A stretch of DNA of 64,000 nt from Eledone cirrhosa (Eukaryota). Position numbers and translations under genes: made by a program. Positions 42,785 through 57,875 of the stretch are shown piece after piece (positions within the stretch are counted from its first letter, which is position 1; each line of letters starts with the position of its first letter). The stretch is taken from positions 84,506,001 to 84,570,000 of the forward strand of contig OZ024746.1 of NCBI GenBank assembly GCA_964016885.1, read 5' to 3'. The notes below the pieces were generated by a model. It worked only from the letters and a program-made list of their open reading frames with translations. It did no database searches and was not told where the DNA came from.

Positions 42785-42993
42785 TAACAAAGGAAATGTG
42801 GTAAGGAACCAGGTGGACCATAACGCACCAAAGTACTCAATACTTGGGGTAGTAGAGTGGGTAATAGGAACCAGTAAGACCCCGACGGCTGAGCTCAAGC
42901 CGTTTCGACGGCTAATTCTGGACGGCTAATTCAGTCCAGAATTAGCCGTCGAAACGGCTTGAGCTCAGCCGTCGGGGTCTTACTGGTTCCTAT
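42785..42993 (-). mobile_element. Asymmetric palindromic element with hammerhead 3' half (family H), inserted in (TA)n
   Basis: 60-bp arms 42864-42923 and 42934-42993, plus an unpaired extension of about 80 nt. Contains gacggctaattc..gaattagccgtc-GAAAcggct-tgagctc-agccgTC. Confidence 0.8.
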
Positions 42994-43552
42994 ATATATA
43001 TATATATATATATATATATGTGTGTGTATATATGTATGTATGTATATATGTATATGTATATGTATGAGTGTATGTATATATATGTATGTATATATGTATG
43101 TGTGTGTATATGTATGTATGTATGTATGTATGTATGTATGTATGTATGTATGTATGTATGTATGTATGTATATGGGAGTGAAGGATCCCTAGCCTTTGTC
43201 AGGGCATTCTTCTAGGAGAAGGTAACTCAGGAAACTGGGATAACTCCGATATAAAACCTGCGGCTCAATAGTTACCGATGACGTTGATCTTTACTTCTTT
43301 TCGGGTTATAGCTAGTCGTTCAGAGAGTGGGATTGGCTCAGTGCACAGTCTTTCCTCACTTTAAAAATATCTTCCCGCACAGGCATTGCACGATAGAATT
43401 AATTAATAATTATTAATAATGGTATATCGTGCAATGGCCATACTCGATAACGAGGGGGCAGCCATCATATATATATATATATATGCATATATATATAATT
43501 ATATATATATTATATACATATTTACATATATATATATATATATATATATATA

Positions 43553-43674
43553 TATTGTTATACTTTGGGAGGGTCATGTTGCCAATAAGAAACACACGCA
43601 CCAGTTGCTTTCACTTCAATTTATTCAACACACGATTTCAGATAAAGAATCTTGCTAAACAAATTCAGAAACGA
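43553..43674 (+). mobile_element. 5'-inverted truncated copy of the family I element
   Basis: 43553-43625 is the reverse complement of about 61424-61497, and 43624-43674 is a direct match to 61502-61552. Confidence 0.8.
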
Positions 43675-43964
43675 TATATATATATATATATATATATATA
43701 TATATATATATATATATATATATATATATATATATATATATATATATATACATATATATATATAGAGAGAAATATATCATACGGAAACGTTATATATATA
43801 TATAAACCAGTAGACCACCTTCAAGCCCACCGCCACCGTGTAACCACACCATCACCATCACCATCACCATCACCATACACCAGTCTCACACATATAAACT
43901 TATATATATATATATCTGATCATACACTTGGTTGAATTGTTCATTCGTAAGATCTATCTCCTTC

Positions 43965-46560
43965 TTTATATATATATATATATATATAAATATATATATA
44001 TAAATATATATATATATATATATATATATATATATATATATATATATATATATATATATATATATATATATATATATATTATATATATATATATATATAT
44101 ATATTTATATATATATATATATATATATATTTATATATATATTTATATATATATATTTATATATATATATATATATATATATATATTTATATATATATAT
44201 ATTTATATATATATATTTATATATATATATTTATATATTTATATATATATTTATATATATATATATTTATATATATATATATATTTATATATATTTATAT
44301 ATATATATATATTTATATATATTTATATATATATATATATTTATTTATATATATATATATATTTATATATATATATATATATATTTATTTATATATATAT
44401 ATATATTTATATATATATATATATTTATATATATATATATATTTATTTATATATATATTTATTTATATATATATATATATATATTTATATTTATATATAT
44501 ATATATATATGTATATATATATATTTATATATATATATATATGTATATATATATATTTATATATATATATATATATATTTATATATATATTTATATATTT
44601 ATATATATATATTTATATATATATATATATTTATATATTTATATATATATTTATATATATATATATATATATATATTTATATATATATATATATATATAA
44701 ATATATATATATATTTATATATATATATATATCTATTTATATATATTTATATATATATATATATATTTATATATATATATATATTTATACATATATAAAT
44801 ATATATATACTTATACATATATAAATATATATATATATATATACATATATATATATATATATATATTTATATATATATATATATATATATTTATATATAT
44901 ATATATATATATATTTATATATATATATATGTGTGTGTGTGTGTGTGCACGCATACACATGCGCATACACATGCGCATACACACGCACACACATATATAT
45001 ATATACATAAAGACATGACTCACACATATATACATGACTCACACATATATATACATACACATACGCACACAATCAGAGATATATGTGTGTTAATATCAAT
45101 CTGTGCATGTTTGGTGTAGCGTGTACATTTTAATGTGTGTGTATGCGTCTATGCGTAAACGTGTGAATGCGTATGACCCTGGCTTTATTTGTAAGTATAT
45201 GTATATGGATATGTGAGTCAATGTGATGTGCATGTGTGCGTGTATCCTATATAGTGTCCGTATATATATATATATGTATATGTGTGTGTGTGTGTGTGTG
45301 TGTGTGTGTATAGCTATTTATACATATGGTGTTATATTATATATATATATATATATATATATATATTACTCTTTTATACATGTTTTGTATTATATATGTG
45401 TGTGTGTGTGTGTTTATATATATATGTGTATATATTAGTTTCGCTCTTTCTCTCTCACTCTCTCTCACTCTCTCTCTCTCTCTCTCTCTCTCTCTCTCTC
45501 TCTCTCTCTCTCTATATATATATATATATATATGTATATATATATATATTTATATAAATATATATATATATATGTATATATATATATAAATATATTTATA
45601 TATATGTTGTATATATTAGTCTCGCTCTTTCTCTCTCTCTCTCTCTCTCTCTCACTATATATATATATATATATATATATATATATATATATATATATAT
45701 ATATATATATATATATGTATATATATATATGTATATATATATATGTATATATATATATATATATGTATATATATATATGTATATATATATATATATGTAT
45801 ATATATATATATATATATGTATGTATATATATATATATGTATATATGTATATATATATATATGTATGTATATATATATATATGTATATATGTATATATAT
45901 ATATATATATGTATATATATATATATATGTATATATATATATATATATATGTATATATATATATATATATATATATATATATATGTATGTATATATATAT
46001 ATATATATATATATATGTATATATATATATATATATATATGTATATATATATATATATATGTATGTATTATATATATATATATATATATATATATGTATA
46101 TATATATGTATATATATATGTATATATATATGTATATATATATGTATATATATATGTATATATATATATATATATATAATATGTATATATATATGTATAT
46201 ATATATATATATATGTATATATATATATATGTATATGTATATATATATATATATATATATGTATATATAATATATGTATATATATGTATATATATATATG
46301 TATATATATATACAATATATATACATATATATTATATATATATAAATGTGTATATATATTTACATACATATATGTGTGTTAATATTTATCTTTGCTTGTT
46401 TGATGTAGCGTGTATGTTATGTTGTGTGTGTATATGTATATAAGTGTATATGCGTATGTGTGTCTGTGAATGTGTGTTTACGTATGTGTGTATGTGTGTG
46501 TGTGTGTGTGTGGTGTGTGTGTGTGTGTGTGTGTGTGTGTGTGTGTGTGTGTGTGTATCT
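43965..46560. repeat. Large interrupted (TA)n/(CA)n/(TC)n microsatellite field
   Basis: Direct inspection. Similar fields at 35790-36390, 37090-37690, 49780-51600 and 61555-63220. Confidence 0.95.
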
Positions 46561-47099
46561 TATACAGTGTCGGTCTTACAGTTGGTTGCCCGTCGAGGGA
46601 GCTATAATGTGCGACATCTGGTGGCCGTTTAGCCACTTATTAAATACATAATCGAGTCGACATTTTTTTTGACACCTCCATTGGGCCCTGTTAAACCAAC
46701 TGACGACAGAATGGTGTCAAGGTAGTGGTGAATGGGGTGTTGGGGCTACTGTTAGAGAAGGTGGTGAGTGGGTGGATAATATTTGGGACGGGGTATGTGG
46801 GAATGTGGAGGAATTTATTAGGTGTGGGGTTACATTTCTTTTCGTAGCTTTTTAGTAACGTAGTAATGATAGCTGGGGTGGTTGTTGTTTAACTTTAGGT
46901 CAGCCTTGATTAAAGACATTCCATTCTTGGCCATCTCACAAGTTAAGGACATCTCGGATTACATTACCTAATATACTTTGTCAAGCGATTTGAGGGTACT
47001 TTAGCTTCTATTTCTAATAGTCGAATGCCTCTAAGAAACTCATTCCTGTATGTCTTTGATGTTTAGACCTAAGTTAGTCCTGATCGAGCAGATCTTTGA

Positions 47100-55703: not shown

Positions 55704-55805
55704 AAAGGGTTTCCCCCCCAAAAAATGTATACACACTTCAACAGCATTCTAATAAATGTTGCCTGTACAGGTAATCAAAGAGTGTATACTTTTTTAGGAC
55801 ACTAT
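55704..55805. mobile_element. Second copy of the Tc1/mariner MITE
   Basis: Same internal sequence as 28678-28781 (aatgtatacacacttcaacagcattctaataaat...gcctgtacaggtaatcaaa). Confidence 0.78.
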
Positions 55806-56448
55806 ATACATATATATATATATATATAAAAAGAGAGAGACAAAAAAAAAGAAAAAAAAATTTTTCTTCCTCATAATCGTCTCTTTCTCCCTGTTTTCAT
55901 ATATATATATATATATATATATATATATATATATATATATATATATATATATATGTGTGTGTGTGTGTGTACAAACATGCGTTCATATGTACATATGATT
56001 GTATCTATATACTTTTATACCTTTACTTGTTTCATTCAGTAGACTGAGGTCATACTGGGAAACCACCTTGAATTATTCGATCATATCAACCCCAGTACTT
56101 ATTTCATCGATCTCATTTTTGCTAGGTTACACCACCAATACAAACGTAGACACCGGCGTACACACATATGGACACACACATGGGCGCACACATACATTCA
56201 CACATTCACACAAACACATATATATATATGTTTAAGGCGAATTGGAAGAGTCGTTAGAATGTGTTGTTTGTTCTAGCTCTGATTTTAAACCACGTCGAGG
56301 TCAACTCTGTCTTTCAGCCTTTCGAACTTGATATATCTCTTTATTAATTTCCTTCTCCGGAAGAAAATTGGAAATATCAAACTAAACAACACAACATAGT
56401 GCAATGAAGAAATATATTAGTTTAACACTTGATATAGTAGGAAAAGAG

Positions 56449-56484
56449 TCTATAAGTTTCGGACACTAGTCCTTCGTCAGAAGA
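56449..56484 (-). ncRNA. Hammerhead ribozyme motif (family E)
   Basis: Minus strand reads tctt-CTGACGA-a-ggac-tagt-gtcc-GAAACTTA-taga. Confidence 0.6.
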
Positions 56485-57697
56485 TAGAATGAGAAATAAA
56501 AGATGAAATAATAGATATATACGTATCTCATAGCATTAACCAAATTATATTTAGAATAAAAGTACATCTTTAAAACATTTTAAAATAAAGAAACACACAC
56601 TCACACACATGCATACACATACACACAACATACACGGAACATACACTTATACATTCACACACATATACATTCCCACATACTTTCTCCATATTTTTTAACC
56701 TTACACGCAAACGAAACTGTCTCCTTCTCTTACACTTTCACACACAAACGCATACACATATGCACGCACATATGCACGCACATATGTAGACACACACACA
56801 CACACACACACACACACACACACACACACACACACACACACACACACACGTGCATACACATATGCACGCACATATGTAGACACACACACACACACATACA
56901 CACATATACACACACGCACAGACACGCACAAACACACACACACACACAAACACACACACGCACAGACGCACACACATGCACGCACATATACGCACACACA
57001 CATAAACACACACATCAAACATCTGAAAGTGTGGCCTAAGATAAAATAAAAGACAAGGAATAACAAAACAAGCACCACACATAGAAATAAAAAATTAAAG
57101 CAAAAAAAAAAACCGATATTATCCAATGAGTGAACGACAATTATATGCAAAATACAGCAGCGTCTTGAAGTGACAATTCCACTCACATAATCAACAGTTG
57201 TAGAAAATAGTGATGTTTATGGATGTCACTTAGACACGATTATAAAATATTGTTGATTCTTGCTTATTTGTTTGGAAACTACTTAATAACAGTTCAATGC
57301 ATCTAAAACATATGGTTTAGACAAGAGAGAGAGAGAGAGAGAGAGTGAGAGAGAGAGAGAGAGAGAGAGTGAGAGAGAGAGAGAGAGAGAGAGAGAGAGA
57401 GAGAGAGAGGGAGGGCTATGCCACCCCACACAGACAGAGAAAACATTAACAAGAAGATATCCAAATCTCTCTATCTGTCTATGTAATGTGTGTGTATGTC
57501 TATATATATATATATATATATATATATGTATTATATAGACACACACACACACATATATATACATATATATATGTGAATACATAAAAGAGGGAACAAATCA
57601 ACGTATAATGTATATATGTTCTTCCATGAATACGTAAGCATATGTATGTATGTATGTATGTATGTATGTATGTATGTATGTATGTATGTATATATAT

Positions 57698-57875
57698 ATA
57701 GGAACAAGTAAGACCCCGACGGCTGAGCTGAAGCCGTTTCGACAGCCGTCGAAACGGCTTGAGCTCAGCCGTCGGGGTCTTACTTGTTCCTATTACCCAC
57801 TCTACTACCCTAAGTATTGAGTACTTTGGTGCGTTATGGTCCACCTGGTTCCTTACCACATTTCCTTCGTTATAT
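57698..57875 (+). mobile_element. Second family H asymmetric palindromic element
   Basis: 46-bp arms 57698-57743 and 57748-57793, then an extension matching the reverse complement of 42785-42863. Flanked by TA repeats. Confidence 0.8.

Follow-up and report, generated by a model that had tools for sequence, protein, structure and literature searches.

Penelope-like elements are described as inserting in the form of inverted, 5'-truncated pseudo-long terminal repeat (pseudo-LTR) copies with head-to-head arms, a tail at one end and a microsatellite target (PMC3846280, PMC8557442). Both the element class and this shape of insert are already known (PMC8557442; bioRxiv 10.64898/2026.07.22.740005), and both PMC8557442 and PMC11167929 treat the formation of the inverted repeats and the tail as an unresolved question. 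For the anole element Poseidon, in vitro experiments showed two start sites downstream of the hammerhead that delimit the tail, as well as cutting and extension of both target strands (PMC11167929). In the twin priming of L1 the second target end starts synthesis at an internal position of the same RNA, the cDNAs are end-joined and the cap is copied as G (PMC11702581), whilst non-LTR retrozymes are short, non-coding derivatives of Penelope-like terminal repeats (bioRxiv 10.64898/2026.07.22.740005). The present study concerns two palindromic copies in a 64,000-nt stretch of the Eledone cirrhosa contig OZ024746.1 (the window; positions are those of the whole stretch), from a host genome (G000) of 3.0 Gb. 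Judged by their sequence, the copies are insertions of the leader alone of a Penelope-like retrotransposon of the Hydra clade, and our reading, to which we give a probability of about 0.75, is that each such insertion arises when one capped RNA is reverse-transcribed twice, the cDNAs being joined head to head. More than 10,000 young, independent insertions are available, and their junctions discriminate between the proposed models.

In the leader numbering used here the A of TYAGTMCAG is +1; the ribozyme cut falls after +41, the short arm ends at +61, the long arm at +141, and the ATG is at +232. Copy 1 consists of exact 60-bp arms (42864-42923 and 42934-42993) around a 10-nt centre, and copy 2 of 46-bp arms (57698-57743 and 57748-57793) with one mismatch. 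A first-pass annotation of the window had described two copies in opposite orientations, with short arms finishing at TTCCTAT, a long arm about 80 nt longer, differing centres with arms of 60 and 46 bp, and flanks of TA runs. All of these features were confirmed, the extra length being an 80-nt tail in both copies. The same holds for a C/A site at which the arms of one copy agree whereas copies 1 and 2 differ.

The parent element was identified through the tail. A 30-nt pattern taken from the tail is matched exactly 19,949 times in the genome and its reversed control not once, so that the copies are not due to chance. The locus sample comprised 93 of the first 100 listed tail matches, all on contig C1, and some of these extend upstream into longer element sequence. 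At one locus (L063) a full unit was found, composed of the leader, an open reading frame (ORF) of 719 aa, a 3' untranslated region and the next leader, with a monomer of 3,118 nt from start to start. The protein contains RWR at 37, DKT at 117, YRDD, CxCX5C at 572, VIY-YIG, CxxC at 670 and CxH at 698, and the same motifs are present in 32-34 of 34 aligned proteins; no CCHH was seen in the L063 protein, as judged by eye only. Relatives of this protein numbered 822 at E 1e-10 among 7,994 scored candidates. Sequence searches of Pfam, NCBIfam and PDB gave no name for the ORF, with no Pfam match for the protein itself and RVT_1 matched in 2 of the 34 aligned relatives; the ORF was placed by its motifs and by its fold, the protein model (predicted local distance difference test score, pLDDT, 87) having telomerase reverse transcriptases (RTs) as best matches in the fold search (E 1e-8).

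A single ORF with a telomerase-like RT plus a GIY-YIG endonuclease (EN) at the C terminus is the mark of the EN+ Penelope-like elements, and so is the arrangement of partial tandem pseudo-LTRs, an inverted 5' copy and a one-sided tail, found here at L063, L062 and L178/L179 and in 10,938 short asymmetric copies. The Penelope origin suggested by the first-pass annotation, which had pointed to an adjacent RT/GIY-YIG ORF as the thing to look for, is thereby supported: such an ORF exists at L063, and long copies run continuously into it. The main leader haplotypes occur in long read-through copies too. Within EN+ elements, the Hydra clade (Craig et al. 2021, PMC8557442), which includes Hydra-1_Obim, shares with L063 the motifs DKT and RW(K/R) (here RWR), the CxCX5C linker and CxxC plus CxH in the C-terminal endonuclease without CCHH, together with a (TA)n target, a single ORF of about 720 aa and a hammerhead in the terminal repeat. 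The aligned blocks of Hydra-1_Obim in the supplement of that paper resemble the L063 protein, by eye only; an 11-nt leader motif and two protein motifs of the L063 family were not found in the text of that supplement, which is possibly incomplete. The present family differs from the clade as described in its 3,118-nt monomer and in its hammerhead, where the core is U3-A8, loop II is long and stem III is full, and its tail has 80 nt compared to the 30-40 bp usually described for such elements (PMC8557442).

The outer ends of the copies are fixed, and each copy has one of each kind. The +141 end passes straight into ATATATATA in 79 of the 93 sampled copies. A neighbouring inverted arm reaching +61 was found in 68 of the 93, and 61 of these 68 run into ATAT; one of the 68 (L043) is tailed on both arms, and some copies whose arms are long or degenerate escaped the script. 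Genome-wide, 10,938 asymmetric copies stand against 87 symmetric ones (centres of 88-118 nt), and the prevalence of symmetric copies that an ordinary transposon with terminal inverted repeats would have given was thus absent. The long insertions at L063, L062 and L178/L179 likewise end at +61 on one side and at +141 on the other. In contigs from public sequencing runs, loose TA ends were present at +141 in each of four runs (X1, X2, X4 and X5, from two studies; some of these runs may be the assembled sample itself) and at +61 in three, so that the outer ends are no assembly artefact. Both +61 and +141 terminate in TAT. In the anole element the two start sites are known, but their pairing, one per end on one RNA, is not shown in the parts of PMC11167929 consulted; here, moreover, both sites end in a TAT matching the target.

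The inner ends lie between -6 and +7 in 46 of 68 long arms and in 47 of 68 short arms. Genome-wide, 19,144 arms reach +1, the template match continuing to -7 in only 4,725, and among the sampled copies 7 of 93 long arms read past -7. The base before +1 is G in 3,256 arms and A in 624, the template having T or C at that place. Among 42 sampled G arms the additional base was unexplained by the partner arm in 25 and explained in 9, no partner being found for 8; several of the sampled G arms join TA directly. For 30 sampled A arms the corresponding numbers were 19, 1 and 10, and at other stop points (n = 40) the spacer base was G in 8, A in 14, T in 13 and C in 5. The initiator consensus is TCAKTY, and the A residues at +1 and at about -4 lie in initiator-like motifs. 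An internal promoter with an initiator has been reported for Penelope (PMC2377424), and we infer that transcription starts at these two A residues, within the ribozyme's loop II. In L1 an extra G is accepted as the mark of a copied cap (PMC9341517, PMC11702581), and the untemplated G at the arm ends is likely a copied RNA cap. The AG that precedes TCCAG was also weighed as a splice acceptor, but this reading was abandoned, since the upstream sequence varies freely and the G is added; a source element with a fixed G at -1 was rejected as well, the sequence beyond the G being variable.

The position of the inner ends bears on the hammerhead. Read-through copies continue upstream into a whole type I hammerhead with stems I-III and core, as is found in the terminal repeats of EN+ Penelope-like elements, and into the 3' untranslated region, and +1 sits in the long loop of stem II (loop II). 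The 5' core strand reads TTGAGAA in 13, TTGATAA in 7, CTGAGAA in 4 and GTGAGAA in 2 of the 26 readable among 45 rows; U3-A8 is a described natural hammerhead covariation (PMC4209133). Rfam gave no match on the complete hammerhead of this family, and among the 150 matches listed in its scan of the window there was simple-repeat noise alone. The long arm of copy 1 holds the stem II 3' strand, GAAA, stem III, the GTC cut site after +41 and the stem I 3' strand. The first-pass annotation had taken the centre as a hammerhead 3' half with a 12-bp stem II in copy 1 and had expected full copies with a CTGANGA strand, lost in the palindromes at the inversion. GAAA, stem III and the GTC site are indeed there, but the 12 bp are the two palindrome arms pairing, and the true 5' strand of stem II lies upstream and is absent from both window copies. 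Full copies with a complete hammerhead beside the RT/GIY-YIG ORF were recovered, most of them with TTGA(G/T)AA instead of CTGANGA. Nor was the core strand lost at the inversion: short copies would lack it because copying ends at the likely RNA 5' end, inside loop II. In 2 of 71 centres (L109 and L113) both arms stop exactly at the ribozyme cut (+42), a hint that cleaved RNA may also serve as template. In the predicted fold of L063 4283-4412 the +61 start site stands at the base of the extended stem I of the hammerhead, which is a possible signal for the choice of the site.

The two arms of a copy carry the same variants. At four common variable sites they agree in 139 of 156 copies, compared to a shuffled mean of 39.8 and a maximum of 56; the set pools selected and unselected loci, and the unselected ones alone gave 52 of 56 against 18 after shuffling. 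In none of the 156 are common haplotypes combined that are distinct at two or more sites. Rare variants were present in one arm in 76 cases and in both in 2, and their rate is 0.58% in the arms and 0.68% in the unpaired tail, which shows that the arms were not homogenised later. The 5' ends are matched too: among 1,781 centres in which both arms are intact and the spacer does not exceed 14 nt, both arms had G in 184, the types were mixed in 177, and both arms read past -2 in 1,420, where independence expects 42, 462 and 1,278, respectively. At 71 centres examined, the junctions showed microhomology in 30, blunt joins in 12 and spacers in 29. Of the two alternatives left by the first-pass annotation, the making of both arms from one template at insertion into (TA)n is thus supported by the shared variants and the matched end types, and homogenisation after insertion is contradicted by the rare variants.

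From the parentage, the ends and their pairing, the matched arms and the extra G, all seen directly in the copies, we infer the following course. Transcription would start inside loop II, and the front of the mRNA would carry the 3' half of the ribozyme only. The endonuclease would cut both strands of (TA)n, after which one target end would prime at +61 and the opposite end at +141, each through its TAT match. Both cDNAs would be extended toward the cap and run off there, at times copying it as the extra G, the rear enzyme displacing the front cDNA, and the free cDNA ends would be joined head to head by end-joining. Long insertions would result if these two sites were primed in the downstream repeat when the RNA is a read-through one. 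The mechanism agrees with the behaviour of the anole element, where both strands are cut and extended and synthesis begins at two internal sites (PMC11167929). We also incline slightly toward the wider proposal that Penelope-like elements in general integrate by obligatory paired internal priming, from both ends of a double-strand cut, at two fixed sites of one RNA, with cDNAs that run to the capped end and are joined head to head. This would represent a third mode of retrotransposition, one that accounts jointly for the inverted repeat and for the tail on one side; in the present family the start inside the hammerhead would let the mRNA escape self-cleavage.

Several observations weigh against two priming events on one capped RNA. 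The microhomology at 30 of the 71 centres is, taken individually, compatible with snap-back, and the arms are discordant at a common site in 17 of the 156 copies. The start site and the cap are read from DNA junctions only. The unselected sample alone gives 7 G to 2 A at +1 compared to 8 to 14 elsewhere (p 0.054), and the p of about 1e-6 for the G excess in the extrapolated counts rests on the subsamples of 42 and 30 arms. The concordance of 5' ends covers only the 1,781 centres defined above; its "past -2" class can contain untemplated T-rich spacers, and source loci with differing start preferences could mimic the match of end types without one shared molecule. Lastly, TAT is used at only 2 of the 5 motifs of the leader, so that it does not explain the choice of sites, and initiation by the anole element is reported as non-homologous to the cut DNA (PMC11167929).

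The matched arms and a built-in asymmetry are also accounted for by snap-back self-priming, in which a single cDNA folds at its 3' end and copies itself, the second arm being trimmed at +61 by the endonuclease or by repair. Self-priming on an antisense template has been proposed for Penelope palindromes (PMC3846280) and "EN-mediated resolution" for the tail (PMC8557442), and the centres with microhomology agree with it. A fold-back arm is, however, limited to the sequence of the first cDNA, and in 13 of 68 copies the short arm surpasses the long arm toward the 5' end by at least 15 nt (in 3 it is the long arm that does so), which contradicts snap-back as a general rule. Furthermore, the arms of L088 and L101 do not overlap at all, and in most of the 50 listed among the 184 double-G centres 0-2 nt separate the arms, too little for a fold-back loop; this course is considered distinctly improbable. 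Only a shade better are the chances of two cDNAs made on two separate RNAs of one active source locus, held for instance by an RT dimer such as that predicted for the anole protein (PMC11167929). Matched variants are expected in that case if one locus dominates per cell, and the 17 discordant copies are in line with it, but an additional rule is required to account for the pairing of a +61 with a +141 start in 99% of the counted copies and for the matched types of 5' ends, and no copy joins common haplotypes differing at two or more sites.

A different question is whether the short copies arise mostly from short non-autonomous sources, as a parasite resembling a short interspersed nuclear element (SINE) with an internal promoter would, rather than from full-length mRNA, the arm still being rebuilt at each insertion. 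The leader-only copies outnumber the long ones, as seen from the few sampled long arms past -7, those starting at -4 retain the initiator-like motif, and the internal promoter of Penelope is known (PMC2377424). A separate short lineage is nevertheless unneeded, as the main leader haplotypes are shared with the long read-through copies, and we regard it as rather unlikely; it concerns the origin of the template and is compatible with paired priming. An ordinary miniature inverted-repeat transposable element (MITE), or arms gene-converted after insertion, can practically be discarded. The copies are short, abundant, palindromic and placed within TA, but symmetric terminal inverted repeats with a fixed centre were not found: the symmetric copies are few, the centres vary and the element is continuous with RT/GIY-YIG sequence, whilst gene conversion is opposed by the rare variants confined to one arm.

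Taken together, the junctions weigh against snap-back and later homogenisation and favour two primers on one capped RNA. Compared to the Penelope insertions described previously (PMC3846280, PMC8557442), those reported here consist mostly of the 141-nt leader alone, and their inner ends mark the likely start of a capped RNA. In L1 twin priming the arms abut with an overlap or gap of 1-10 bp, the sites are variable and a minority of events is involved (PMC11702581); here, as the rule, the sites are fixed and one arm repeats the other as far as the 5' end. In retrozymes every tandemly repeated unit contains a complete type I hammerhead (bioRxiv 10.64898/2026.07.22.740005), whereas the short leader copies are inverted, with half a ribozyme and without the 5' core strand. 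No report of a copied cap or of paired use of two sites in Penelope insertions was found in the literature searched, which included few subscription papers; bioRxiv 10.1101/2024.08.27.596794 contained nothing pertinent. The data herein presented add the counts of caps and of pairing and the junction statistics that make an open mechanism testable, and the intact ORF with its defined start sites renders the model directly accessible to experiment.

Table 1. Leader-derived features of the window
Feature	Position	Strand	Remark
Copy 1 tail, leader +62 to +141	42784..42863	-	outer end +141 = putative second fixed start site, meets (TA)n via TAT
Copy 1 long arm, leader +61 to +2	42864..42923	-	hammerhead 3' half
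Copy 1 centre, partial repeat of leader +15 to +7	42924..42932	-	4 nt common to short-arm end
Copy 1 short inverted arm, leader -4 to +61	42929..42993	+	outer end +61 = putative first fixed start site, meets (TA)n via TAT
Copy 2 short inverted arm, leader +61 to +16	57698..57743	-	one private mismatch
Copy 2 long arm and tail, leader +12 to +141	57744..57873	+	blunt junction with short arm
Diverged leader relative with internal deletion, non-palindromic	30125..30184	-	BLAST E 1.7e-6 over 33 nt, plus alignment

The centre of copy 1 is unusual in containing a partial second 14-nt unit, and such arms number 294 genome-wide; of 30 examined, 15 were long, 13 short and 2 unclear. We take it to be a rare variant produced by renewed copying of 14 nt, for which RT re-priming and templated insertion during repair would both fit. 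A source element carrying tandem 14-nt units was rejected, as none of 91 unselected arms has them and as the units occur in either arm with differing junctions. The degenerate third piece noticed in the first-pass annotation at about 30130-30180 was borne out as a diverged relative without a palindrome (Table 1), which its alignment identifies as an older fragment of a related leader.

At three other loci (L105, L116 and L033) the leader 5' end (+2 to -3) is fused to internal element sequence. A template jump of the RT at the RNA 5' end would be expected to give such joins, and they could be the origin of the partial tandems. At L048/L049, L050 and L053, copies of this and of related families adjoin within one TA run.

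The window contains further features. Mutually similar minimal hammerheads with CTGANGA at 29911 (+ strand) and at 56480 and 28888 (- strand) belong to another Penelope-type repeat family, and a TA-flanked palindrome of about 200 bp at 11400-11620, with a hammerhead-like centre, is likely the stump of a different family. A minisatellite of 22-bp units extends over about 12990-16150, with at least 138 overlapping copies listed. A 200-N assembly gap at 52893-53092 has near-duplicated sequence on either side, and RT fragments are present at 5929-7067, which we take to be the C-terminal region of an RT of the long interspersed nuclear element (LINE) type.

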